Virus record (IMG/VR): IMGVR_UViG_643348545_000015
Coordinates: 1-37,765 of that record
From: a virus
Taxonomy: Duplodnaviria; Heunggongvirae; Uroviricota; Caudoviricetes
Direction: 5' to 3' (one strand)
Length of the DNA stretch: 37,765 bases
The notes under the pieces were generated by a model that was given only the letters and a program-made list of their open reading frames with translations, made no database searches and was not told the DNA's origin. Shown in pieces: positions 3,563 to 36,234 of the stretch (position 1 is the first letter of the stretch; each line of letters starts with the position of its first letter). The position numbers and the translations under genes are program-made.

Positions 3563-6500
3563 GCGTCGTATCCCCCCTGATCGCTGTAGTTACTCCTGGC
3601 TTTTGCCTTCAGCCTGCGTTCACGTTCATCAAGCTGGCGTGCCACCTCCCGCGCAATATCCTGCGCACTTTGTCCTGGCTGCGTCTGAATGATGATCTGC
3701 GTCGGTGCCTCAATCCGGTGAACGGGCGGCACAGTGGCTGCACGACTCACCATCGCTTCGCCGCCTTTCGCGGGAAGTGCCAAAGGATGCAACGGTGGAA
3801 GCTCTGCAGGCGCGGCAGCAACGCCCATCATTCCGGCAACAACGGCAGCCAGTGCAGCTGTATTTCTCCGGCTGGTCACATTTGCCGGGCCGTTAACAAT
3901 TTCCGGCCCGTTTTCACCGACGATGCCAAACTGCCCACGCGGGATATAGCCGCCGCTGTCATACATCCCCGCAAAGCCATATCCCCATGACGGAAAACCC
4001 CCCGATGGCATCATCACTTTACCGTCTGCATTCACCGTCGCAGGTTGCTGACGCGTCACTCTTTCCGGCAGTTTCGCCTTTGCAGCCTCTTTACTGACAA
4101 TGCCGAGTTTCTCCAGCAACCAGGAAACGCCGGATTTCAGGGAGTCCAGCGGATGCATGACCATATTCAGCCCTTCCGCCAGTGCCTCCCCGAATCGCCG
4201 CCCCATTGCCGCTGCACTCTGCAGTTCGGCAGAGGTCGACTTAACGGGCGTCAGCAGATCAGTAAACCAGCCCCACAGCGCCTGTACTTTGTCGCCAATC
4301 CACTGGAACACGGGCTTAAGCGGTTCGAATGCTGCACTGACGGGACCTGCCGCCGCTTTGAATCCTTCCACCACGCCACCAAGAAATGCGGTGATGGGTT
4401 GCCAGTATTTCCAGACAACCAGCGCCACGCCCGCCAGTGCAGTAACCACAAGACCTATCGGACTGAGCAGAGCACCTAACAGACCAGATACGGCATACAG
4501 GGCAACGCGCAGCATCGCCAGTGGACCAGATGCCAGTACTCGCAGCACCGTGCCTGCGGAGGCCAGTCCACCGCGCAGTACCGCCAGAGGATTCATAAAC
4601 ATCACAGCAACAGCACGTAAACCGGATAATCCAGACCGCAAAAGTGCAACCGGCGCACCTGCTACAGTTTTCAGGACATTTCCCGTCAGTGATGCCGTGC
4701 GGCGCAAAGACGACAACGGCGCAGTAAGTAAACCTGCGGCGTTGCCCGATGAAGCAAGCCCGCGTCGCAGCAGTGCAAGTGGTGCGCCAGCCAACCAGGA
4801 CAACGCGCTGCTGGTTCGCGTTACTGCTGCCGTAACGGAAGGTAACGTTTTGATACCCAGCACAGAGAATCCCAGACGGATGACTGCCAGCGGCCCCAGC
4901 ACAGCAGCCAACACCACAGCCAGGGTGCCGAGGCCCACAGTAACAGCAGCCACAACCGCGGCTACTTTCATCAGTGTGCCCGTCAGTTCAGGGTTAGCTT
5001 CCACCCAGCGACGCAACGCCCCCGTGATGCTTTTCACCGTGTACAGAATATCCATCAGCGGCTGGCGCAGCGTTTCGCCCAGGCTGCTGAAGGTGTTCTG
5101 CGCTCCGGTTTTGACCAACAACCACTGCGCAGAAAGTGAGTCCTTGTTAATGTCGGATTCTTTCTGCATCGAACCGAGCGCATCATTGCCCGCTGTCAGT
5201 TTTAGCTGGCGCTGCAGTTCCGGCAGGTTGTTTGCCAGTTTCGCCGCATCATCGCCAAACTCTTTACCAAACAACATGGTCATGGCAGACAGGCGCTTAT
5301 CCTGCGGCAGTGCGTTCACCTTCTCCAGTACGCGCTGGATAGTTCCCATCGCATCCTTCGTCATCTGCTTTTCAATCACTTCAGGATTGAGTTTCAGCAG
5401 ATTCATTCCTTCAAAGAAACTCTTGCTTTGCATGGTCGCAATGGACAATTCACGCACCATCGCGTTGGCAGCACTGGCAGCGACCTCCGGCGCAGCACCC
5501 AGTGTCAGGAAGGTGGAACCCAGCGCCGCCGCTTTACGATAATCCAGACGATCAGCCACACCGCCCAGGCGTTGCATGACATCAATGATGTCTGCCCCTT
5601 TCGACATAGCGTTATCATCCAGATAGTTCAGCGCATCACCGAGCTGTTCAATATTGCGGGTTGGTATTTTGTAGAGCTGGGCGATTTTCCCCAGACTTTC
5701 TGACAGTTCATCAGCTGGCAGCTCAAAGGCTGTTGCCGCCTTTGCTGCCGTACTGGCGAAGGCCAGCAGGTCACGTTTCTGGTCCTCCCAGCTGTCGTCA
5801 GGGTTTGCCACATTCATGCGCGCACCACCTTCAACCAGTGCGGCGAAGTCCACAGCACCGTTTTCCATTGGCAGCTGTTCACTGGCAGCTTTGATGGCAT
5901 CCTGCATTTCGTAAAAACGCGCAGTGCGGTTGCCATTATCGTCACGCAGACCATTGACCTGCTTTGCCACACCTTTCATGGCATCTTCCATGCTGGTATA
6001 GCTTTTTACCGCCGCCATCACTGGCGCGCCCATTGCCAGCCCTGCAGCCGTGGTGGTGGCTCCGGCTCCTGCGATGCGATCGCGCACTTCAAGCCGTCTT
6101 GAGTATTGTTCTCTGGCAGCGTTCATCCGTGCCTGTTGTTCACCCAGACGTTTAAGTGCTTTTTTCTGGCCCTCCAGTGCCTGACGAGTTTCTTCGGCAT
6201 TTTTCTTAAGTTCTCGCTGGGCACTACTGAGTTGTCTGGTATCAATCCCTGATTCTTTAAGTGCCTGACGTTGTCTCTGGACCGCCCCCAACAAGCCGTT
6301 ATAGGTCTGCTGAAGTTCCTGTACTCGTGTTTTGGCCTGACTGAATAACTTTGCCTGCGCGGCGGTTGGCCTGTTAGTGGCAGCAAATTGTGTGGCGAGT
6401 TTTGCCGCCTCTTCGCGGGCTGCGTTCAGGTTGTTGGCTGTTATGGCTAGTTGCGAGCGCGTCTTGCGAAATTCATCAATTCTGCCAGCCTGCTTATTCA

Positions 6501-8893: not shown

Positions 8894-8911
8894 TGTACCG
8901 TTATTCACACA
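8894..8911 (-). promoter_or_regulatory. Candidate Ogr-dependent late promoter element (TGT-N12-ACA) for the F operon
   Basis: TGTACCGTTATTCACACA about 80 bp upstream of the FI start; same motif class as at 14972 and 20869. Confidence 0.5.
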
Positions 8912-14971: not shown

Positions 14972-14989
14972 TGTATCACTGCTGATACA
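14972..14989 (-). promoter_or_regulatory. Candidate Ogr-dependent late promoter element upstream of V
   Basis: TGTATCACTGCTGATACA, a perfect TGT-N12-ACA dyad in the S-V intergenic region. Confidence 0.5.
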
Positions 14990-18238: not shown

Positions 18239-18889
18239 TCAGCGGCTGTCATTGCGCAGTCTGCGCTCCAGCTGCTGTTTGTCTTTTTTCACGCCACAGC
18301 GGGGATCGAGCTGTAACGCATGGTTGAGATGATTAAGGGCGGACGCCGGATTGCTTTCACTCAGGACAGCGCCAATCGCTTTATGCAGACGCGCCCGTGA
18401 CTGGTCCGGCATATCCAGACCGTCTGTCAGTTCCAGCGTCTGCAGTAATAGATCCGCATCAAAGCCGGTGGCGGCAAGCATTGCGCTCTGCGCCGCGTCT
18501 GACATTTCCTCTGCCAGCACGGTCTGCACGTTGCGGTTACCCAGCGGCATCACCCAGCCATGACGCAGAGCATGACGCCCGATCTCCAGCGCCCCGGCAT
18601 AATCTCCGGCATCAATGCGCCACAGCATCACGTACATCAGCACGTCATCCTGTTGAGCGCCTCCGGCAGCCAGGACGCCCTCCGCCCAGGCGGCATATTT
18701 CGGCAGTAGCTCCACCTTGATTTCCGCTTTTTTCACCGTGGACTGAACGCCCTTGAGACGGCGGCGGTCTTCCGCCAGTTGCAGCAGCATCAGGTCATAG
18801 CCCGATGCGTGGCGAACACTGCCGCCCTCGCGGGCGGCCTGTTCAGCCTGAACGCGCAGGCGATGCTGCCGTGCGGGACTCAGGCTCAT
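18239..18889 (-). CDS. M: Terminase small (endonuclease) subunit M
   Basis: 216 aa; position between N and L. Confidence 0.8.
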   Translation of the reverse strand: MSLSPARQHRLRVQAEQAAREGGSVRHASGYDLMLLQLAEDRRRLKGVQSTVKKAEIKVELLPKYAAWAEGVLAAGGAQQDDVLMYVMLWRIDAGDYAGALEIGRHALRHGWVMPLGNRNVQTVLAEEMSDAAQSAMLAATGFDADLLLQTLELTDGLDMPDQSRARLHKAIGAVLSESNPASALNHLNHALQLDPRCGVKKDKQQLERRLRNDSR

Positions 18890-18892
18890 GGA

Positions 18893-19951
18893 TTACGCTC
18901 CGGTTTCGGCTGCGGCGGCGCTGAAATCACCAATCTGGATGTTTTCCACCAGTGCGGCACAGCGGTAGTCCTCAACCACATAGGCTTCGTTAACGGATTC
19001 AAAGTTTTCAATCCGGTCACGTTTCGGGTTGTCGATAACTGAACGGCGGCGGGTGTCTTCCTGCCAGTAGATGGACAGGTTATCCAGACGGGTGATCAGC
19101 AGCGCATTCGGCGGGAAGAACGGCGCACGCACGGCCTGCAGGCCACCCATGCGTTTCTGACTGATGATCATATCGGCAGCCAGTTTTTCACTGTTTTCCT
19201 GCTCTTTGTTGACCAGCGGGAAATACTTGTCAGACAGCAGTTCACGACCGCAAATCACCACCAGATCGTCATCGTCCTGGTAGACCACGTCGATAAGCTC
19301 ATTGACGGCATCCATCACCACGGCGTCCAGGTTGGCATATTCGCCACCTTTCCCGACTTTCACTGCGCCCGGTGTGGTTTCACCGCCCGTGGTGGTGCTG
19401 CCCATGACGTGATCCGGTGCATCCTCACGGATTTTCTGCAGCCAGCCTTTATTCACATCCTGCAGTAGCGGGTTTTCGCTACGGTTAGAGGTTTTCGCAC
19501 GCTTCACGCCGTTAAAGCCGATCATGATGCGGTCCAGTGCCTGACGTTTCACGATGGCGTTACGGATACGCACCTGGAAATCCTGAAACTTCGCCCACAG
19601 GTCCAGCTTCGCGTAGGTCAGCACCGTGTCAAAGTTGGTCTGTTCGCATTTGTATTCCACATCGACCATCAGCGTCGGATCGACAGGTTCACGCTCTTTC
19701 GCGGTGGTGTCAGTGGTTCCGGCAATGGTGCTGCCAACACCCAGCCCCAGCAGCTGACCGGACTGCTCAGTCACTGGCGTGACGTTAATCAGCGTCAGGA
19801 AAGCGGCGGACTGCTGGATCTGGTCTTCCAGCGTCTGCTGCACAGACGGCTCCACAGTGAACTTGCTGGACAGTTCTTCAACTGCCACACCGTTCAGACG
19901 CGCCAGCTGCTGCAGGTAAGCGTTAAAAGCAAAGCGGGTATTCTTCTTCAT
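18893..19951 (-). CDS. N: Major capsid protein N
   Basis: 352 aa MKKNTRFAFNAYLQQLARLNGVAVEEL... Confidence 0.9.
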   Translation of the reverse strand: MKKNTRFAFNAYLQQLARLNGVAVEELSSKFTVEPSVQQTLEDQIQQSAAFLTLINVTPVTEQSGQLLGLGVGSTIAGTTDTTAKEREPVDPTLMVDVEYKCEQTNFDTVLTYAKLDLWAKFQDFQVRIRNAIVKRQALDRIMIGFNGVKRAKTSNRSENPLLQDVNKGWLQKIREDAPDHVMGSTTTGGETTPGAVKVGKGGEYANLDAVVMDAVNELIDVVYQDDDDLVVICGRELLSDKYFPLVNKEQENSEKLAADMIISQKRMGGLQAVRAPFFPPNALLITRLDNLSIYWQEDTRRRSVIDNPKRDRIENFESVNEAYVVEDYRCAALVENIQIGDFSAAAAETGA

Positions 19952-19967: not shown

Positions 19968-20801
19968 TCAGCAATTGGTCAGAGTGTCAGCAGGGGCGTT
20001 ACCGCCTGTTGCACGCTGGCGGTAGTCCTGGCGGCAGTCCTCATGGCTCAGCTTGTCCACCAGTTCGTTAAAGGCGGCCTGTTGTGCCTGCAGGGCAGTC
20101 TCCAACTTAGACAGGCGTTCTTCCTGCTCAGACAGGGATTTTTCGGTGCGTGCGCTCAGGTTTTGCTGCTCAGTGGCGACCAGCTCCACGGCCTTATGCA
20201 CATCAGAGAACCGGGCATCGTCGGACTGCTCTTTTTTGGTGAACAGCGCCGTGACGCGGGCAAACAGGGACGGCTTGTCCTCCTGGATTTCTTCCAGTTC
20301 GATCACCGTTTCCTCTGCGGCGGTAAAGAGATTGGCGGGATTCTGCTTGCGGTTTGCCAGCGGGTTATGGGCTGCACTGGCGCTGAATGTCAGCATTTCC
20401 GTACCCAGACTGGCTGGATCATCAGTGGCGGCCAGGCCAACCAGGTAGGCTTTGCCCGTATCAGCGAACTTCGGGCTGACTTCCATAGAGGTGAATAATT
20501 TCTGGCCTTTTTTCACCAGTTCCACCAGGGACTCCGTTGGCTCAACGTCGGCATACAGTGCCATCTTGCCCGCCAGCGGGCCTTCCGTGATTTCTTCAGC
20601 AAACAGCGCCGTCACCTTGCCGTAGCGGTTAAAGGTGCTGTCCGGCAGATAAGACTTGATGTGCTCAAGGTTAATCAGCGCGGTGTACACCGCCGGGTTG
20701 TAGCTGGCTGCCATCTGTTCCAGCCATTCACGCTGGATTTCGCGTCCGTCGGTGGTGGCACCTTCCACCCCGATGCGAAAACGCTTTGCTTTCACTGTCA
20801 T
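19968..20801 (-). CDS. O: Capsid scaffolding protein O
   Basis: 277 aa MTVKAKRFRIGVEGATTDGREI... Confidence 0.88.
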   Translation of the reverse strand: MTVKAKRFRIGVEGATTDGREIQREWLEQMAASYNPAVYTALINLEHIKSYLPDSTFNRYGKVTALFAEEITEGPLAGKMALYADVEPTESLVELVKKGQKLFTSMEVSPKFADTGKAYLVGLAATDDPASLGTEMLTFSASAAHNPLANRKQNPANLFTAAEETVIELEEIQEDKPSLFARVTALFTKKEQSDDARFSDVHKAVELVATEQQNLSARTEKSLSEQEERLSKLETALQAQQAAFNELVDKLSHEDCRQDYRQRATGGNAPADTLTNC

Positions 20802-20868: not shown

Positions 20869-20886
20869 TGCGCGGTATTTGTACCG
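20869..20886. promoter_or_regulatory. Candidate Ogr-dependent late promoter element in the divergent O/P intergenic region
   Basis: TGTACCGACTACCACACA, near-identical to the element upstream of FI. Confidence 0.5.
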
Positions 20887-20943
20887 ACTACCACACAAAC
20901 CGCAGGCGGGGAAAGCCTTCATTCAAGGCTGTAGGTTTGTGCC

Positions 20944-22710
20944 ATGAACACCACACTGACACCCGCAGATCTCGATCCCCGTCGGCAGGCCATGCTGCTG
21001 TACTTTCAGGGATACCGTGTAGCCCGCATTGCTGAAATGCTGGGCGAGAAAGTTGCAACCGTTCACAGCTGGAAGAAACGCGACAAGTGGGGTGACTATG
21101 GGCCGCTGGATCAGATGCAGCTCACCACCGCCGCACGCTACTGCCAGCTCATTATGAAGGAGCACAAAGAAGGGAAAGATTTCAAAGAGATTGACCTGCT
21201 GGCGCGCCAGTCGGAACGCCACGCGCGGATCGGCAAGTTTAACAATGGCGGCAACGAAGCCGACTTACCCCCTAACGTCGCCAACCGCAACAAAGGCCCG
21301 CGCCGTCAGCCGGAAAAGAATGTTTTCACCGATGAGCAGATTGAGAAGCTGGAAGAAATCTTCCATTCCTCCATGTTCAACTACCAGCGCCACTGGTGGG
21401 AAGCCGGAAAAACCAACCGCATCCGCAACCTGCTGAAGTCACGCCAGATCGGCGCGACCTTTTACTTTGCCCGTGAAGCCCTGATTGACGCTCTGCTTAC
21501 CGGACGTAACCAGATTTTCCTTTCCGCCAGCAAGGCACAGGCCCACGTCTTTAAGCAGTACATCATCGACTTCGCCAAAGAAGTGGAAGTGGAGCTGAAA
21601 GGCGATCCGATGGTGCTTCCCAACGGGGCCACACTGTATTTCCTCGGCACCAATGCCCGCACGGCCCAGAGTTACCACGGCAACCTGTATCTGGATGAAT
21701 ATTTCTGGATACCGAAATTCCAGGAGCTGCGCAAAGTGGCTTCCGGTATGGCTATTCACAAAAAATGGCGACAAACCTATTTTTCCACGCCATCCAGCCT
21801 GACACACAGTGCTTATCCGTTCTGGTCCGGTGCGCTATTCAACCGTGGGCGCAATAAAGCCGACAAGGTGGACATCGACCTGTCCCACAGCAATCTGGCT
21901 CCAGGCCTGCTGTGTGCAGACGGGCAATACCGCCAGATAGTCACCGTGGAAGATGCGGTGCGCGGCGGCTGTAACCTGTTCGACCTTGACCAGTTGCGCA
22001 TGGAATACAGCCCGGACGAATACCAGAACCTGCTGATGTGTGAATTCGTGGACGATCTCGCGTCCGTATTTCCGCTCAGCGAGCTGCAGGCATGCATGGT
22101 GGACAGTTGGGAAGTCTGGACCGACTTTCATGCACTGGCCCTGCGCCCGTTTGGCTGGCGAGAAGTGTGGATCGGTTATGACCCGGCAAAAGGTACGCAG
22201 AACGGCGACAGCGCCGGATGCGTGGTGGTGGCACCGCCAGCCGTGCCAGGCGGTAAGTTTCGCATTCTTGAGCGTCACCAGTGGCGCGGGATGGACTTCC
22301 GCGCCCAGGCTGACGCCATCAAAAAACTGACCGAACAGTACAACGTGACCTATATCGGTATCGACTCGACAGGTGTCGGTCACGGAGTTTACGAGAACGT
22401 GAAAGCGTTCTTTCCTGCCGTCCGGGAGTTTGTCTACAACCCCAACGTTAAAAATGCCCTGGTACTCAAGGCCTACGACATTATCAGCCACCGCCGTCTG
22501 GAGTTTGACGCCGGGCACACCGACATTGCGCAGTCATTCATGGCAATCCGTCGTGCCACCACCGCCAGTGGCAACCGCCCGACCTATGAAGCCAGCCGCA
22601 GCGAAGAAGCCAGCCACGCCGATCTGGCCTGGGCAACAATGCACGCACTGTTTAACGAACCGCTGCAGGGCGAGTCCGCCAATACCAGCAATATTGTGGA
22701 GATTTTTTGA
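20944..22710 (+). CDS. P: Terminase large (ATPase) subunit P
   Basis: 588 aa MNTTLTPADLDPRRQAMLLYFQGYRVARIAEMLGEK... Confidence 0.92.
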   Translation: MNTTLTPADLDPRRQAMLLYFQGYRVARIAEMLGEKVATVHSWKKRDKWGDYGPLDQMQLTTAARYCQLIMKEHKEGKDFKEIDLLARQSERHARIGKFNNGGNEADLPPNVANRNKGPRRQPEKNVFTDEQIEKLEEIFHSSMFNYQRHWWEAGKTNRIRNLLKSRQIGATFYFAREALIDALLTGRNQIFLSASKAQAHVFKQYIIDFAKEVEVELKGDPMVLPNGATLYFLGTNARTAQSYHGNLYLDEYFWIPKFQELRKVASGMAIHKKWRQTYFSTPSSLTHSAYPFWSGALFNRGRNKADKVDIDLSHSNLAPGLLCADGQYRQIVTVEDAVRGGCNLFDLDQLRMEYSPDEYQNLLMCEFVDDLASVFPLSELQACMVDSWEVWTDFHALALRPFGWREVWIGYDPAKGTQNGDSAGCVVVAPPAVPGGKFRILERHQWRGMDFRAQADAIKKLTEQYNVTYIGIDSTGVGHGVYENVKAFFPAVREFVYNPNVKNALVLKAYDIISHRRLEFDAGHTDIAQSFMAIRRATTASGNRPTYEASRSEEASHADLAWATMHALFNEPLQGESANTSNIVEIF

Positions 22711-23744
22711 TGGGAAAGAGTAAGAAAAACCGCGCTGCGGCGACGAATCAGATCCAGCATAAAAACCAGACTTCAGCCGAAGCATTCAGCTTCGGTGATC
22801 CCGTTCCAGTACTTGACCGCCGCGAACTGCTGGACTATGTGGAATGTGTTCAGACAGATCGCTGGTATGAGCCTCCCGTCAGCTTTGACGGACTGGCGCG
22901 CACCTTCCGCGCTGCCGTGCATCACAGTTCCCCGATTGCAGTAAAGTGCAACATTCTGACCAGTACCTATATCCCTCATCCGCTGCTCAGCCAACAGGCT
23001 TTTTCGCGTTTTGTGCAGGACTATCTGGTATTTGGTAACGCCTACCTGGAGAAACGCACGAACCGATTCGGTGAAGTTATCGCCCTTGAGCCTGCGCTGG
23101 CAAAATACACCCGACGCGGGTTAGACCTGGATACCTACTGGTTTGTGCAATACGGTATGACAACCCAGCCGTATCAGTTCACGAAAGGCAGCATTTTTCA
23201 TCTGATGGAACCGGACATCAACCAGGAGATCTACGGCCTGCCCGGCTATCTTTCTGCCATTCCATCCGCCCTGCTCAACGAATCCGCCACGCTGTTCCGC
23301 CGTAAGTATTACATCAACGGTAGTCATGCAGGCTTCATCATGTACATGACCGACGCCGCGCAGAATCAGGAGGATGTGAACAACCTCCGCAACGCGATGA
23401 AAAGCGCCAAAGGTCCAGGCAACTTCCGCAATCTGTTTATGTACTCGCCTAACGGCAAAAAGGACGGACTTCAGATTATCCCGTTGTCAGAAGTCGCAGC
23501 GAAGGATGAATTTCTTAACATCAAGAACGTGAGTCGGGATGACATGATGGCAGCGCACCGCGTGCCGCCGCAAATGATGGGGATTATGCCGAATAATGTT
23601 GGGGGGTTTGGGGATGTCGAAAAGGCGAGTCATGTATTTGTTCGTAACGAGTTAATTCCATTACAAAAAAGGCTAATTGAATTAAATGAATGGCTTAATG
23701 ACGAAATTATTCGTTTTGACGAATATAAATTAGGCAATACTTGA
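22710..23744 (+). CDS. Q: Portal protein Q
   Basis: 344 aa from the ATG overlapping the P stop (TGATG); the ORF track begins at TTG 22707. Confidence 0.9.
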   Translation: MGKSKKNRAAATNQIQHKNQTSAEAFSFGDPVPVLDRRELLDYVECVQTDRWYEPPVSFDGLARTFRAAVHHSSPIAVKCNILTSTYIPHPLLSQQAFSRFVQDYLVFGNAYLEKRTNRFGEVIALEPALAKYTRRGLDLDTYWFVQYGMTTQPYQFTKGSIFHLMEPDINQEIYGLPGYLSAIPSALLNESATLFRRKYYINGSHAGFIMYMTDAAQNQEDVNNLRNAMKSAKGPGNFRNLFMYSPNGKKDGLQIIPLSEVAAKDEFLNIKNVSRDDMMAAHRVPPQMMGIMPNNVGGFGDVEKASHVFVRNELIPLQKRLIELNEWLNDEIIRFDEYKLGNT

Positions 23745-23753
23745 TTAAAGCCT

Positions 23754-23787
23754 GTTTAAACTGGCTGTCGGAACAGCCAGTTTAAAC
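23754..23787. terminator. Bidirectional hairpin between Q and the convergent cargo operon
   Basis: Perfect 15-bp stem GTTTAAACTGGCTGT / ACAGCCAGTTTAAAC with loop CGGA. Confidence 0.55.
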
Positions 23788-24630
23788 ACCGGCACCAATG
23801 AAATCGCCATATGAATCTTCTTCAAGGCTGATGTATTCTACCCTCCATTGATCCATCCGCCTCAATGCATACAGGGAGAAATGAGTATCAGCAACAGCTA
23901 TGCACGTATTCAATTCTATAAGTTCTGAATGCCCCAAGGTTGGATCACCATAAAACTTATAAAACAAAGCCTTTAGATCAGAACATGTTTGTTCAGCCGC
24001 TCTTCTGGCATCGGGGCCACCTTCAGTTGCATCATAAACAACATTGATAGAAAGCTCATATGGTATGCCTTCCTCAAGATCGTTAAATCTTTCTTCGCCC
24101 AAATCGAAAAAAACTCCGATCAAATGCTCTGCGTTTGTGGCGATAATATCCGCAACTTCTTTTTCGAAAATAAACTTTTTATCCTCGTCGTAAGCCCGCA
24201 AGCGCTCTTCAAACGAGTTAGGAAACGCTGGACGACCATACTTAGCAGCTAACCATTGCTTAAGAGCTTGTTTCTCTTCTGTGCTAATGGAGAATGCTGG
24301 ATCGTTTTCCTCACAACAGAAAGCTTCTTTAGGAATGATGACTTTCCTTTCATGCCGGAGCTCTACTGCATTCTTCTTCGCACTTTCTGGGTTTTCAAAA
24401 CATAGATCGAGTATTCTCGGATGCTTAGCTCTTTTCATCCTGCTTGACCCCTTTTTCAAGGGGCCAAACATCAGTTCCACGTTTTTTTCTGAATTACTCT
24501 GTAAATCACAATCATGCGTTATAACTACAACTTTATGGTTCGTTTCATCAGGCTGCAGAATTCCAAGTGAAACGGCATCATCATGTTTAAGTACATGCCC
24601 CTGACGCCATGATGTTCCTCGTACCAACAT
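23782..24630 (-). CDS. Hypothetical protein, cargo operon gene 3
   Basis: 282 aa; ATG 9 nt after the gene 2 stop; no motif I can assign by eye; AT-rich codon usage. Confidence 0.6.
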   Translation of the reverse strand: MLVRGTSWRQGHVLKHDDAVSLGILQPDETNHKVVVITHDCDLQSNSEKNVELMFGPLKKGSSRMKRAKHPRILDLCFENPESAKKNAVELRHERKVIIPKEAFCCEENDPAFSISTEEKQALKQWLAAKYGRPAFPNSFEERLRAYDEDKKFIFEKEVADIIATNAEHLIGVFFDLGEERFNDLEEGIPYELSINVVYDATEGGPDARRAAEQTCSDLKALFYKFYGDPTLGHSELIELNTCIAVADTHFSLYALRRMDQWRVEYISLEEDSYGDFIGAGV

Positions 24631-24639
24631 AAATGTGAT

Positions 24640-25302
24640 TTATTCCTCTACCGTTCCAGGAATTGAAATAGATGACTTCCAATCATCTGTCGGTTTCGCC
24701 TTGCTTGCTAAGTAATTGGCCGATTCAGCAGCAGCATTCATCGCTTTAGCTTCATCAATCAATACCTGAACTGCCCTATTCCAATCCTCACCTTCTTTTA
24801 CTACGTCCATTAATGACTTACCATTAAATGCTTTCATTTTCACCAATAGCTTCGCATCATGGAGTCCAGCTTTGGAAAAAGAGTCAGCGACATTACTAAG
24901 GTTGGTAATGAATTGCACTTTTGAAGCATCATCAGGCTGGTTCTCCCCTGACAACCATTTATAGAGAGCCTGCCGAGTTATCCCCAAATCCTTTGCCAGT
25001 TCTGACATTGATGGAGACAGCACTTCTCGAATATTAGCTAAATGTTGGGCAACATTCCTGACATCAACCTCAGGAGAAATTGCAGGCGTGTACGTTGATT
25101 CTATGGAATCAAATGCAAACTGAACCCTTGGCTGAACATACTGACGCCATTGCTTATAAGCATTTACAGGGTATGAAGCCCCCGTACCAACTAATAGTAA
25201 AGATGCGGCGACAGCAACAACACCTGATACACATGAGCTTGACTGCAAATTTGGAGAATATCGATCTACAGAGCCTATGCTTCCGGTGGGAATTGCATAC
25301 AT
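24640..25302 (-). CDS. Hypothetical protein with N-terminal hydrophobic helix and HTH motif, cargo operon gene 2
   Basis: Start MYAIPTG... 7 nt after GGAGGTGA; hydrophobic CVSGVVAVAASLLLVGTGASY; HTH-like SMSELAKDLGITRQALYKWLSGE. Confidence 0.6.
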   Translation of the reverse strand: MYAIPTGSIGSVDRYSPNLQSSSCVSGVVAVAASLLLVGTGASYPVNAYKQWRQYVQPRVQFAFDSIESTYTPAISPEVDVRNVAQHLANIREVLSPSMSELAKDLGITRQALYKWLSGENQPDDASKVQFITNLSNVADSFSKAGLHDAKLLVKMKAFNGKSLMDVVKEGEDWNRAVQVLIDEAKAMNAAAESANYLASKAKPTDDWKSSISIPGTVEE

Positions 25303-25321
25303 TTTAGTCACCTCCGTTGTT

Positions 25322-26131
25322 TCAGTGCCATTTAGTACGGGCAAAATCTGAAACCATGCCTTCAAATGCTTCTTTAACTTTACTATGCAACGAAAGAATC
25401 TGTTTTTCAATTAACTGCAAATCAGTTGACATGTTGCCTTCAACATAATGATCTGTATCAATTATTGCGTGCATACGATGCTCTGTGTTACTAAATCTCG
25501 GCAACGGCAGTAAACCATTAGGAATCATATCTGGCGGAAAACCTAGCTGACCATTCATCTTATGTATTCGTGAAACCATAAATCCATTAGGGATCAATGG
25601 CTCAACACATGTCTGATATACGGACTCTTGTATAGACTGTATTGGCGTCCATCCGAAATCAACACCATGAAGTTCCTTTACAAGATACTGCTCAATTGTT
25701 TCGCTTTTCTCAGGAAACACAGCATCCAAATATCGAAGCCCAATCCGACTTAACAGCGATGGCTTAGCAAATTCTAGAACTTTGCTCAGACCAAGTATCA
25801 ATGACGAGATGAAAGATACATGGTTATCATAATATGTTGTATGGAACGTAATGAAATCGTTGCCTAAAACAAAACCAGATCTTCTATCTGCATCAATCAT
25901 CAACCAACTTGTCACAGGCTCAAATGAATGTACCGGTGGCTCATTGGGGTTTTTTATTTCAAATTTCAACTGAGTTGTATTGGAAACCTCAAATAAAGGA
26001 AATCCCTCAACTCTTAGCGCATCTTGTATGTCTGGAACATACTTACTCATTGCAGCTATTGGAGTAAACTTTACCTGTACCAATGCATAGTAAACGGGCG
26101 CATTGGACATACGTTCGCTGTTAGTACTCAT
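25322..26131 (-). CDS. Hypothetical protein, cargo operon gene 1
   Basis: 269 aa, RBS AAGGAGG before the ATG. The N-terminal pattern NAPVYYALVQVKF is vaguely reminiscent (from memory, unverified) of the uncharacterised TIGR04255 family. Confidence 0.6.
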   Translation of the reverse strand: MSTNSERMSNAPVYYALVQVKFTPIAAMSKYVPDIQDALRVEGFPLFEVSNTTQLKFEIKNPNEPPVHSFEPVTSWLMIDADRRSGFVLGNDFITFHTTYYDNHVSFISSLILGLSKVLEFAKPSLLSRIGLRYLDAVFPEKSETIEQYLVKELHGVDFGWTPIQSIQESVYQTCVEPLIPNGFMVSRIHKMNGQLGFPPDMIPNGLLPLPRFSNTEHRMHAIIDTDHYVEGNMSTDLQLIEKQILSLHSKVKEAFEGMVSDFARTKWH

Positions 26132-26271
26132 GCCGCCCTCCTTGAAATTGTTTCATCTCATATCTCTTTATCTTACTAACTGTAGTTTACACATAGGTTG
26201 ACACTTTCTCCATCATTAAGTTCACTATGACATCAATAGCCAAAACTCTTACGTAATCGCTTCGGCGCGCG

Positions 26272-26290
26272 CTCGTATCCCCGCCACGCC
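26272..26290 (-). other. Candidate cos site (cohesive-end sequence)
   Basis: Minus strand reads GGCGTGGCGGGGATACGAG. The first 13 nt match my recollection of the P2/186 19-nt cohesive end (GGCG[A/T]GGCGGGGAAAGCA[C/T]); orientation puts Q on the correct side. Confidence 0.35.
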
Positions 26291-26494
26291 TGCCCGCTTT
26301 ATGTAGTGGTTTTCATGCACCTGCATGATCTACGCAAAAGCCCACCAGTTCTGGCGGGCCTTAGCAAAAACGATCCTCAAACGATCATGCGATCTCATGC
26401 GGCATAGACATGCACTACAGAGCTAACGCCTCGCAAGGGCTCGTTGTTCAACCTTGCTGACGCCAGAAACAAGTTCAGACGCCAGCAACGTTTC

Positions 26495-26728
26495 TTAATG
26501 CAGCCAGCTGTCGTCTTCCCACACCTTCTGCATAATTTTCATCACTTGCTTCCTTTCTTCGTCCAGTTGCAGTCCGGTCAGTTCCACACCGTTAGAGCTA
26601 CCTTTGCGGATACGAATTACCGTTTTGGGATACAGGGGGCGCAGATTACGGTAAAGCTCGGATTCAAGGGCGTCCAGGGTAGACTGGCTAATCTTCTGCT
26701 CTTTATCGATCATTATTTCAATGCGCAT
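26495..26728 (-). CDS. dinI: DinI-family protein
   Basis: 77 aa MRIEIMIDKEQKISQSTLDALESELYRNLRPLYP...WEDDSWLH, resembling E. coli DinI; RBS GAGGTGA. Confidence 0.8.
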   Translation of the reverse strand: MRIEIMIDKEQKISQSTLDALESELYRNLRPLYPKTVIRIRKGSSNGVELTGLQLDEERKQVMKIMQKVWEDDSWLH

Positions 26729-26738
26729 AAAAGTCACC

Positions 26739-26927
26739 TCAGCTGATGACATCCATTGAGCGGTTGTATTCGTGGCTTCTGATTTTTGCCATGAGTTCAT
26801 CAGTCAATTCAGAAACCCACTGCAGAGCCAGTCCCTTCTCTTCATCACTACACTCACTGGCCGCTACAAGCTTAAGAAAAAAATCAATGCGCTGGAGCTT
26901 CAAAGACTCCAAAAAATAGTCCTGCAT
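26739..26927 (-). CDS. Small hypothetical protein, first gene of the LexA-box operon
   Basis: 62-aa ORF with RBS GGAGGAAAG, 10 nt upstream of the dinI-like gene; function unknown. Confidence 0.5.
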   Translation of the reverse strand: MQDYFLESLKLQRIDFFLKLVAASECSDEEKGLALQWVSELTDELMAKIRSHEYNRSMDVIS

Positions 26928-27080: not shown

Positions 27081-27377
27081 TTAATACAGGTTTCGCCACT
27101 TATCATCTTCCTGCAAACGCTGGTTCCGATAGAAGATACGCAGGCCTGCTCCTGACGAAATACTGCCGCCGCGAAGGAGTAAATCGACCTCTTTCTCGCT
27201 ACCATCAAACCCTCTGGACTTCAGCTCATACACGAGCTGCTGTCGCTGATGGTCTGTAATTCGCTGTTTGTAGTCTTTACACCGTTTCGGTTTAACCAGG
27301 TGTAACCTTGCTGCCAGTTCCCGGCGTTCTTTTTTGCTCATACTGTGCAGGTAATCGTGCAACTCCTTGTCATCCAT
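27081..27377 (-). CDS. Hypothetical charged protein downstream of A
   Basis: ORF-track frame 27081-27437 opens at a TTG overlapping the A stop; first ATG at 27377 ([13 protein letters not shown]...). No clear RBS, so the call is uncertain. Confidence 0.35.
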
Positions 27378-27433
27378 GCGGGTGATATCCGTTCTGGTAT
27401 CCCCATCAGCTGATTTGTCTTTCCCTTGTTGGT

Positions 27434-29521
27434 TCAAATTTTCAGCAAGGGGACAGTTATTGCCACGAGTCCAAGGGGACAGTTATTGCCACGAGTCCAA
27501 GGGGCGCAAGCGCCCTGGTCGGCTGCCGCCTCCTGAACGTCAACGGCCTTACGAACCATTTTCCACTTCACGGCATGAGTGCAGATTTTGCCCTCTGCAA
27601 TGGGTGACCAGATGCCATAAATACGAATGCCGTGATCGCCATAGGCGGTCGGCTCTTCGTTGATTTCATAAGCGGTTCTGATGAGGTGATATTTACGGGG
27701 AACCAGTACGCCGCCCTGCTTCATGATGTAGGTGGCAAAACAACCAGCATCAGCTGCAGCCAGAATGGCATCAAGGCGCGGGTTATCCAGTACCGGCGCA
27801 CCTGCTTTTTTGTCACCCTGTTGCCTTGCCGCCTGACCAGCCAGCAATCGCAGTTCACGGTAAGCCTGACGCCCCGGAATGCCAAAGAAGCGGAATTGCT
27901 GAACACGATGCAGAGACGCCCAGGCATTAACGTATTCAGCGTTATCACGCAGAGATTTACCCGTTTCCTTGCTGATCTCGCCAGCCAGACCACGCCCGTC
28001 AATGTTCTTACTGATGTATTTCGCGATGTAGCTAGTCGGCGTTCCTTTGCGCGGGTTTATCAGCTCAGACTTAAAGCGTGGCCCCGTGTTATTACCCAGC
28101 TCCTCGCGGTCTTCACGGATAGCAAACTTACGCAACAATGCAGTAATGGCGCGGCGGTCTTTTTTGCGCATGAAACACAACAGGTGCCAGTGAACTGTGC
28201 CGTCATGATGCGGCTCAGCCACCCGCACGCCATACCAGCGCAACCCGGCTTTGTGCATCGCCTTACGAAATGCAGCAAACATGCCGACCAGATAATCACT
28301 GCTTTGTCTTACCGTCGCATTTGTCCAAGTCGGGTTGGGCCTACCGTTATTTAGCGTGGAATGGAAACGTGACGGACAGGTGATGGTGTAGAAAACGGCG
28401 CAGTCACCGCGCATTTCCGCGATAAGCTCCAGACCTTTAACACAGGCCATCATCTCATTGCGGCGATGCGCAGGGTTGCTGCTGCTGGCGTTTACCACAT
28501 CCTCCATGTCCAGCGTGTCGCCGTCTTCGTTCACCAGTTCATGAGAACGGAAAAACTCCAGCGACTTACGGCGCTGCTCACGTTTATGCATCACGGCTTC
28601 ATAGCTGACATAGGGAGATGCTTTTTTGCTGACCAGGCAAACAGCACGCAACTGCTCTTCCCGCCATTCGCAACGCATCTTCCACAATTTCCGATACCAC
28701 CAGTCGGCGCACAGCATACGCGCCAGCGACCCCGGAATGAGTTCATAGGGCACGGGTTTACGGCGGTTTCTTTTCCGGCGGAGTTGCTCAAACGCAGGCG
28801 GTATGACATCCAGTCGCAGGGTTTCCGCCGCCACCTTTTCCCATGTCTTGCGGATTTCTTCTGGCTTAACGTCATCGGTGGCATACAAATCGCCACAAGC
28901 GGCATCAAGGCACATGCTCATATGCGCAGCTACCAGGGTGGACAGGCGTTTCACCTGATCCTGACTCATTTCAGGCAGGATCAGCAGACCGTCCAGCCCT
29001 TCATGGCTTGCCATAAAGCGAAAAGAAGTGGATAGCTGACTGTCGCGTACATGCTCCAGTCGTTCCAGACATGGCTTAATCGTCTCACGCAAATAGCGGG
29101 AATAAGCCTTTGGCCTGCCCAGGCTGCTGAAGTATTCAATACGTTGCATCAGCGGCTTGCTGATATGGGAAGGCTGGGCGTTAACGTCCGCCAGAATGAC
29201 CATGCCCGGATTAAAACGCTGCTGCTCATGCGCCAGCTTTGCCCGGCTAATGAGCTTATCCTGCTCCATTTCGCGCTGGACAGGATCACGTGATTCATTA
29301 AAGAAATAACGCTCCCATACCTGATCACTCAGAGCCTCGCGGCGCAGTTGTTCCTGCTCGTTATCGGTAGCGTACAGAGTGATCAGGTTTGAAAGCGCAG
29401 AAACCGGCGCAACTTCCGCCGGGTCCAGATAAGGGTTAATGGCCTTTTTCGGGCTGTTCCATGAGAATGCTGCGGCGACCTCGTTAAAGCCGCTGCAGTT
29501 GTTCATATCAGCATGGCTCAT
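27434..29521 (-). CDS. A: Rolling-circle replication initiator endonuclease A
   Basis: 695 aa with HUH-type motif VHWHLLCF and tyrosine motif YIAKYISK. Confidence 0.9.
27446..27504. repeat. Tandem direct repeat, 2.3 copies of a 26-bp unit
   Basis: CAAGGGGACAGTTATTGCCACGAGTC at 27446-27471 and 27472-27497, plus CAAGGGG; lies in the last ~25 codons of A. Confidence 0.9.
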
Positions 29522-34279: not shown

Positions 34280-35296
34280 ATGACTGTCAGAAAACAGCCA
34301 AACGGTAAATGGTTGTGCGAGTGCTATCCCAATGGACGCAATGGCAAGCGCGTGCGTAAGCAATTTGCTACGAAAGGCGAAGCCATTGCTTTTGAAAGCT
34401 TCACAATGGAAGAAGTGAACAAAAAACCATGGCTGGGGGAAAAGGAAGATCGGCGACACCTATCAGAATTAATTGAGCAGTGGTATTCCCTGTATGGTCA
34501 AACACTCGCAGACCCCAAGCGCCTCATAGCGAAACTTAGAATTATCTGTAATGGTCTAGGCGATCCCATCGCTTCAGAACTGACAGCCGGTGACTTTACG
34601 AAATACCGCGAAGCACGGTTAAAAGGTGAAGTACGAAATGAAGATGGCACGTTTATGTCGCCCGTTAAGCCCCGCACGGTAAACCTTGAACAGCGCAATC
34701 TATCATCTGTTTTTGGTACACTGAAAAAGCTGGGCCACTGGTCAGCCCCCAACCCGCTTGCTGGGCTGCCAACATTTAAAATTGCTGAGAGTGAATTGGC
34801 GTTCCTGACCCCGGAAGAAATTAAACGTCTGCTGGATGCCTGCGCCGATTCTCAAAGCTCCAGCCTGCTTTTGATTGCAAAAATATGCCTGGCCACCGGC
34901 GCACGCTGGAGCGAAGCCGAAAACCTGCAGAGTCATCAGGTATCAAAATACCGTATCACTTATACCAAGACCAAAGGCAAGAAAAACCGAACTGTGCCTA
35001 TTTCTAAGGATTTATATGAAGAACTGCCTAAGAATAGGGGGAAGTTATTCACCCCATGCAGAAAAGCCTTTGAGCGTGCAGTAAAGCGGGCTGGTATCGA
35101 TCTGCCAGAGGGTCAATGTACTCACGTTCTGCGTCATACATTCGCTAGCCATTTTATGATGAATGGTGGAAACATATTGGTTTTGCGGGATATCCTAGGA
35201 CATTCAGATATAAAAATGACCATGGTCTATGCACACTTCGCCCCAGACCATTTAGAAGATGCCGTAACTAAAAATCCTTTATTTAATTTGAGGTAA
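34280..35296 (+). CDS. int: Tyrosine integrase (P2 Int family)
   Basis: 338 aa with C-terminal catalytic region ...HVLRHTFASHFMMNGGNILVLRDILGHSDIKMTMVYAHF... Confidence 0.93.
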   Translation: MTVRKQPNGKWLCECYPNGRNGKRVRKQFATKGEAIAFESFTMEEVNKKPWLGEKEDRRHLSELIEQWYSLYGQTLADPKRLIAKLRIICNGLGDPIASELTAGDFTKYREARLKGEVRNEDGTFMSPVKPRTVNLEQRNLSSVFGTLKKLGHWSAPNPLAGLPTFKIAESELAFLTPEEIKRLLDACADSQSSSLLLIAKICLATGARWSEAENLQSHQVSKYRITYTKTKGKKNRTVPISKDLYEELPKNRGKLFTPCRKAFERAVKRAGIDLPEGQCTHVLRHTFASHFMMNGGNILVLRDILGHSDIKMTMVYAHFAPDHLEDAVTKNPLFNLR

Positions 35297-36060: not shown

Positions 36061-36105
36061 ATGTAGGAATTTCGGACGCGGGTTCAACTCCCGCCAGCTC
36101 CACCA
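36061..36105. repeat. attR core: displaced 45-bp 3' end of ssrA
   Basis: Identical to 1016-1060. Confidence 0.9.
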
Positions 36106-36234
36106 ATCATGATTGGACGGTGTAAGGACTACACCAACAAAAACAGGAAGTTATAAGTCTCAGCAGGACACCGACCAGACGGTGAGGAGACAAAAAAGGA
36201 TACGCAACGGAGTCGCGACTCCCTATGACATTAA

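Follow-up and report, generated by a model that had tools for sequence, protein, structure and literature searches.

The question raised by this locus is whether a short stretch of the minus strand (26272-26290), described in the initial annotation as resembling the cohesive ends of phages 186 and P2, is the site at which a resident prophage is cut for packaging, and what is to be made of a second, partial copy of the same sequence in the intergenic region between genes O and P. Both were examined in the window, i.e., the whole stretch of 37,765 nt analyzed here. We are highly confident that 26272-26290 (minus strand) is cosN of an E. coli prophage of the P2 family, of the Fels-2/186 type, and that the second copy, found at 20904-20916, is a chance look-alike and not a cos. 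The cosN reading is based on homology, position, conservation boundaries, the presence of the packaging genes and genome size.

From the ORF map and the Pfam matches, the window is a complete P2-family prophage, with a map reversed with respect to that of P2. The genes on which the argument draws, assigned by ORF map and Pfam, are the following:

18239-18889, small terminase gene M (Pfam Phage_term_smal, 7e-40)
18893-19951, minus strand, capsid gene N
19968-20801, minus strand, scaffold gene O
20944-22710, plus strand, terminase large subunit gene P (Pfam Terminase_6N, Terminase_6C and Terminase_5)
22707-23744 (stop codon at 23744), plus strand, portal gene Q (Pfam Phage_portal)
26495-26800, minus strand, DinI/Tum-like gene
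27434-29521, minus strand, replication gene A (Phage_GPA domain, aa 188-510, intact)
34280-35296, integrase gene

The packaging genes (gpM, the small terminase; gpP, the large terminase; gpQ, the portal) are all encoded within the window and intact according to Pfam. A perfect direct repeat of 46 bp, at 1016-1061 and 36061-36106, represents attL and attR, 35,045 bp apart; one of the copies is the 3' end of ssrA, whose tmRNA gene lies at 698-1060, and an Rfam scan of the window returned nothing but this tmRNA. The prophage is integrated at ssrA and the excised genome would measure 35,045 bp, a unit that fits a P2-type capsid (about 30-36 kb; P2 has 33,593 bp and SEN8 35,203 bp). A closely related element is deposited as the E. 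coli "plasmid" p13P477T-2 (CP019275.1, 37,446 bp, circular), which is really a circular P2-family phage genome; its cos is that of the window but its cargo is not, and the annotation gives frameshifts in several genes.

Direct reading of the minus strand from 26290 to 26272 gives GGCGTGGCGGGGATACGAG, exactly as first reported, and the cohesive ends with which it had been compared proved to be those at positions 1-19 of the P2 record (NC_001895, annotated cosL, GGCGAGGCGGGGAAAGCAC) and of the 186 record (NC_001317, annotated cos, GGCGTGGCGGGGAAAGCAT). The window 19-mer fits the P2-family consensus GGCG(A/T)GGCGGGGA..., its first 13 nt are equal to those of 186, as had been noticed, and over the whole end the identity is 15/19 to 186 and 14/19 to P2, with the mismatches to 186 at four of the last six positions. 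The alignment to the published sites that the initial annotation had proposed as a check was made with the joined right and left ends of P2, 186 and P4 against the window, Fels-2 and a related E. coli element, and it revealed an ungapped 55-bp core (26265-26319) identical at 44/55 positions to 186, 42/55 to P2 and 43/55 to P4. The core (29 + 19 + 7 nt, from TGCAT to GCGCGC) follows the pattern TGCATKAAAACC-N7-RAAGYGGGCR, 19 nt, YGCGCGC. All lineages share the same colinear order of elements, namely distal GCAT(G) boxes at about -123 to -100, a proximal box (G/C)TGCAT(G/T)AAAACC, the motif AAAG(C/T)GGGC(A/G), the 19-nt end and (C/T)GCGCGC, and a stem-loop lies at about -70 to -45 in 186, P4, Fels-2 and the window; beyond (C/T)GCGCGC all of them diverge from one another, P2 and P4 included. 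Since the flanks are homologous too, the match at 26272-26290 goes far beyond chance. The stretch from TGCAT to GCGCGC corresponds to the "55-bp core" attributed to Ziermann and Calendar (1990), which, as that work is described in the papers citing it, is needed for packaging in P2-family phages.

The elements of the cos module, all on the minus strand, are listed below, with positions relative to the top-strand nick where these are given:

26265-26271, CGCGCGC, left flank of cosN and last conserved bases of the core (alignment)
26272-26290, cosN, predicted 19-nt 5' cohesive end GGCGTGGCGGGGATACGAG (identity to 186/P2; identical to the putative cos of SEN8)
26291-26319, right 29 nt of the 55-bp core, TGCATGAAAACCACTACATAAAGCGGGCA, with the proximal GCAT box and GCGGGCA^GGCG (ungapped alignment with P2, 186 and P4)
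26337-26362, stem-loop followed by a U run (folding of 26328-26372)
26386-26415, distal GCAT(G) repeat cluster, GTGCATGTCTATGCCGCATGAGATCGCATG, with GCAT at -123, -110 and -100 from the nick
26265-26415, whole conserved cos module, about 151 bp, from -125 to +26 (conservation profile)

The boundaries of the module emerge from its relatives. An exact search of IMG/VR with the 26-mer formed by the cohesive end and the CGCGCGC flank matched at least 119 contigs, and the cos module is common to more than 120 related viral contigs. When 121 unique sequences were anchored on the 26-mer, conservation was high from -125 to +26 and fell to 0.3-0.5 on either side, with values of 0.69-1.00, mostly above 0.9, in the 29 nt at 26291-26319. 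All five sequences (P2, 186, P4, Fels-2 and the window) read YGCGCGC just past the cohesive end, and the arrangement of the distal GCAT repeats also occurs in P2 (GGTGCATGAGATTGCAT), 186 and P4; their conservation suggests that these repeats may form a cosB-like arm bound by the small subunit of the terminase. The segment of 45 nt at 26328-26372 folds with a minimum free energy of -22.9 kcal/mol (z = -4.5; none of 200 shuffles was as stable). In 186 and P4, stem-loops of other sequence occupy the equivalent place, and the loop positions are the least conserved; the hairpin at 26337-26362 probably terminates the transcript that reads from the DinI/tum side towards cos.

Since the 26-mer search had itself fixed positions 0-25, a second profile was anchored upstream of cosN and on its first four bases, for a total of 179 distinct contexts. 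In these, positions 6-12, 15, 18 and 21-26, counted from the start of the cohesive end, are nearly invariant, while positions 5, 13, 14, 16, 17, 19 and 20 vary, and conservation collapses at position 27, i.e., past the 7 nt that follow the cohesive end. The variable positions take in every difference of the window from 186 and P2, and intermediate ends such as ATAGCAT-T and ATACGAT-T were found, so that the 3' part of the cohesive end seems to be loosely constrained. Across the loci L008 to L210, a sample biased to ATACGAG by the first search, the ends can be arranged in the graded series AAAGCAC-T, AAAGCAT-T, ATAGCAT-T, ATACGAT-T, ATACGAG-C, CTACGAG-C and GTACGAG-C, in which positions 16 and 17 switch jointly (GC to CG or the reverse) and positions 19 and 20 mostly do so. 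The series suggests that substitutions in the last third of the cohesive end are acceptable to the terminase.

The cos variant of the window is an ordinary site of the P2 family, already annotated and published as a putative cos. The Felsduovirus SEN8 (KT630647.2) carries the window 19-mer verbatim at positions 1-19, where it is called "putative cos site" (Bosak et al., 2017, PMC5427200), and the 26 nt made of GGCGTGGCGGGGATACGAG and CGCGCGC that open the SEN8 record are identical to the window. The SEN8 cos was assigned "by annotation", with a Nextera (tagmentation) library, and not by end mapping (PMC5427200). Variants in print include ggcgaggcgggggaacgag in SEN4 and SEN5 and GGCGTGGCGGGGAGACGAG in the Stenotrophomonas phage Smp131. 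Fels-2 has this site too, with the 19-mer and CGCGCGC unchanged. SEN8 and Fels-2 present the layout of the window, with cos followed by accessory genes and the portal gene Q, and the synteny A - DinI - cos - cargo - Q - P is common to the three; they differ in the number of cargo genes (two in SEN8, one in Fels-2, three in the window), and SEN8 comes from Salmonella whereas the host of the window prophage is E. coli. Phages 186 and PSP3 share with the window the first 13 nt of the end, the GCAT boxes, the stem-loop and the A-tum/DinI-cos-portal synteny, but 186 differs at positions 14, 16, 17, 19 and 20 (ATACGAG C in the window, AAAGCAT T in 186), is free of cargo from cos to W, its homologue of Q, and carries orf97 on the other side of cos. 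P2 and P4 have the same architecture, with a 19-nt end, a gpM/gpP terminase and homology that stops 7 nt past the end; P2 has A at position 5 where the window has T, differs in the 3' third, and has its cargo genes, old and tin, on the side of cos that faces A, not on the one facing Q. Among the contigs bearing this cos variant, a tblastn search with the C-terminus of P4 Psu found no P4-like satellites.

A wider comparison can be made with phage lambda. The lambda cos (cosQ-cosN-cosB) is alike in function, with a nick site, a one-sided arm for the small subunit and 5' cohesive ends, which in lambda are 12 nt long, and for the P2 family circular monomers can serve as the substrate. The lambda site has no sequence homology to the cos of the window, which, with ends of 19 nt instead of 12, falls outside the lambda family.

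The position of the site agrees with its assignment. It lies between the A side and Q, with the strand of the cohesive end pointing to Q, in the orientation found in P2 and 186. The initial annotation had put 2.5 kb, filled by the cargo operon, between Q and the left end of the virion, and this arrangement stands as a prediction: cos and the Q stop codon (23744) are separated by 2546 bp, SEN8 has the same layout, and in more than 120 relatives the breakpoint occurs here. The space between cos and Q is occupied by the following features:

23754-23787, no strand assigned, perfect 15-bp inverted repeat, GTTTAAACTGGCTGT-CGGA-ACAGCCAGTTTAAAC, between the convergent Q gene and cargo operon
23782-26131, minus strand, cargo operon of three ORFs encoding proteins of 269 aa (TIGR04255), 256 aa (HTH) and 282 aa (no family)

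Searches of the cargo with Pfam, PADLOC and NCBIfam returned only the TIGR04255 match of the 269-aa protein (E = 4e-53) and the HTH domain, and no match to an anti-phage defense system of PADLOC at a meaningful threshold. Of 5426 complete E. coli genomes, only 18 carry the cargo in full, and several chromosomes of this species match the cargo region at 100% identity; the 1089 E. coli genomes with some match to the query were left out, their matches not being assignable to the cos portion. The gap between Q and the cargo is of 37 nt, mostly taken up by a hairpin of 34 nt that runs on into the cargo ORF, and judging from its sequence the inverted repeat is probably a bidirectional terminator that marks the far edge of the cargo slot.

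In 91 loci that carry this cos with Q downstream, the slot measures 149-3527 bp from the core to the Q stop codon and its inserts fall into 64 sequence clusters. Twelve of the 91 sites are "empty", with cos 149-175 bp from Q as in P2 and 186, and the window insert of 2523 bp is common to three loci. The junction is fixed at +26/+27 in both the 121- and the 179-sequence sets. From 7 nt past the cohesive end to the Q terminator, the DNA is a free slot whose cargo changes from one relative to another. It is the known cos-adjacent hotspot of P2-like phages for cargo and defense genes, which Rousset et al. (2022, PMC9122126) place immediately next to cos, in the gpA-gpQ interval. Earlier literature is in line with this, with foreign genes reported between cosL and the Q homologue (Dodd and Egan, 1996; Nakayama, 1999; both as quoted in the phiRSY1 paper) and the retrons Ec67 and Ec86 reported between cos and a terminator of a 186-like prophage (Dodd and Egan, 1996). 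What is found here is the same in kind as that hotspot (Dodd and Egan, 1996; Rousset et al., 2022), with 64 types of insert in 91 loci.

A second variable junction was observed on the A/DinI side, where conservation collapses at -126 (26416-26494 of the window, and related loci). The slot at this junction holds old/tin in P2, orf97 in 186 and STM2726 in Fels-2, and in the window it is empty except for about 35 nt in common with 186 (gttgaacaacgagccc..gcgaggcgttagc).

The second copy of the motif has a different setting. The initial annotation had read at 20893-20905 a sequence matching the central 13 nt of the 186/P2 cohesive end; the match is real, AGGCGGGGAAAGC being identical at 13/13 positions to P2 cos 5-17, with a 12-nt match to 186, but its coordinates were off by 11, the motif lying at 20904-20916. 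The features concerned are:

20880-20897, plus strand, TGT-N12-ACA dyad, site of a late activator (Ogr/B-type) of the divergent O and P promoters
20904-20916, plus strand, second motif AGGCGGGGAAAGC, at about -40 to -28 of the predicted late P promoter

The counterparts of the dyad in P2 (3057-3087) and 186 (3798-3817) are annotated as activator sites, and in the window other TGT-N12-ACA dyads lie upstream of the tail operons at 8894-8911 and 14972-14989. The motif, in the context ccgc|AGGCGGGGAAAGC|cttcatt, begins 6 nt downstream of the dyad at 20880-20897; if the spacing of P2 holds (47 nt from the end of ACA to the P start site), transcription of P would start at 20944 and the motif would fall at about -40 to -28, a placement that depends on the P2 annotation. 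The predicted start coincides with the A of the ATG of P, so that in the Fels-2 lineage the messenger of the terminase large subunit may have no leader; upstream of P, the genomes of P2 and 186 contain about 23 nt more, among them a GAGG Shine-Dalgarno, and the P ATG with its context is conserved in 32 distinct relatives. We also considered GGGGAAAG as a general feature of late promoters and ruled it out, a single copy being present in the window and none in the other promoters of the TGT-N12-ACA type.

Different explanations could be offered for the resemblance at 26272-26290. One is that it is a chance match in GC-rich DNA and that the real cos lies elsewhere, for instance beside Q as in P2 and 186, where cos is 186-195 bp from the portal stop codon, as against 2.5 kb for the window motif. 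We find this barely conceivable, given that the Q-cargo gap leaves only its 37 nt, mostly hairpin, for such a site, that nothing else in the window comes within three mismatches of the 186 19-mer, and that the core is identical to 186 at 44 of its 55 positions and continues into a colinear upstream arm; the distance itself recurs in the layout of SEN8 and Fels-2, and in the 12 cargo-less relatives the same cos sits 149-175 bp from Q. A different matter is whether the site, though intact in appearance, is unused, the prophage being defective and the motif a relic never cleaved in this strain. A perfect tandem duplication of 26 bp at 27446-27497 (CAAGGGGACAGTTATTGCCACGAGTC twice) frameshifts gene A on the minus strand, which ends at 695 aa, and deleting one copy in silico restores an ORF of 804 aa like Fels-2 gpA, absorbing the "118-aa ORF" at 27081-27437; with A truncated in this way, the prophage may be replication-defective and its cos perhaps never used. 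On the other hand, A of phage 186 is naturally 694 aa long, so that the truncated protein may still work, and its Phage_GPA domain is untouched; the packaging genes are all intact, the core is identical to that of the plaque-forming SEN8, and the module is 100% identical to Klebsiella phage records, among them Kp4845-2, over the 216 nt at 26265-26480. An unused cos seems unlikely to us, and it would bear on the condition of the prophage and leave the assignment of the motif unchanged.

The remaining alternative concerns 20904-20916, which could be a functional element related to cos, either a secondary recognition site of the terminase or the remnant of an ancestral cos of the P2/186 type. If so, its 13-nt identity to the P2/186 cos core would be more than coincidence, and the terminase or gpM could bind there, with a feedback on its own operon. 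The location in the promoter of the terminase large-subunit gene would suit such a role, and the resemblance is mildly unusual: of 1500 versions of the window simulated with a first-order Markov model, only 2.2% held a match of at least 13 nt to the P2 or 186 19-mer, in a test chosen post hoc. The sub-core GGGAAAG is also invariant in 32 of 32 distinct O/P intergenic sequences of relatives, but since the whole intergenic region is well conserved this invariance is not distinctive. Beyond the 2.2% figure and this invariance, no observation made here speaks for binding of the terminase or gpM at the motif. Against a function, the motif shares with the cos of its own genome only the 8-mer GGCGGGGA, which is at chance level (two matches in the window, at the two reported places, vs. 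1.02 expected), and around 20904-20916 there are neither nick contexts (GCGSGCR/YGCGCGC) nor GCAT boxes. In relatives whose cos 26-mer is identical the motif reads GCCGGGGAAAG or GTCAGGGAAAG, its GGCGGGG having become GCCGGGG or GTCAGGG with no co-variation, and it is missing from the P promoters of P2 and 186; GGGGAAAG is found in no other late promoter of the window. We regard a cos-related function here as very unlikely, and the initial annotation was right that the O/P interval is not a place where a cos should lie. The most plausible reading of the second motif is a coincidental resemblance to cos in the -35 region of the late P promoter.

With 26272-26290 taken as cosN, a scheme of cleavage can be proposed. 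According to the P2 paradigm, a terminase formed by the small subunit gpM and the large subunit gpP acts on the circular replicated genome. In the window prophage, the terminase would recognize the arm of about 125 bp with its GCAT repeats, on the A/DinI side of cos, and would introduce two nicks 19 nt apart, one per strand and each immediately 3' of a GCGSGCR element (top, GCGGGCA^GGCG; bottom, GCGCGCG^CTCG). The resulting 5' overhangs would read GGCGTGGCGGGGATACGAG. The left end of the mature molecule would begin at 26290 and lead through the three cargo genes into Q, and the right end would carry the conserved GCAT arm. A sequence GCG(G/C)GC(A/G) precedes the nick on each strand in the window, P2, 186 and P4, and on this comparison we suggest that the GCGSGCR elements are determinants of the nick sites, with CGCGCGC at 26265-26271 as the putative recognition element of the bottom strand, which would explain why exactly 7 nt past the end are conserved. 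The cleavage positions are those predicted from P2 and 186, and it is on the homology to these two phages that they rest, since the cos of SEN8 was called by annotation from a tagmentation library.

The assignment of cos is of use chiefly for bookkeeping, as it would fix the predicted virion ends and the map origin of this E. coli prophage, with the left end at 26290 reading leftwards in the window. The three-gene cargo sits on the portal side of cos, whereas old/tin of P2 and orf97 of 186 are on the opposite side. For studies of such cargo, its limits are given by the packaging site on one side and by the portal gene on the other, as it begins 7 nt past the cohesive end and ends at the 15-bp inverted repeat by the Q terminator, and the relatives of the prophage offer dozens of alternative inserts at the same junction.
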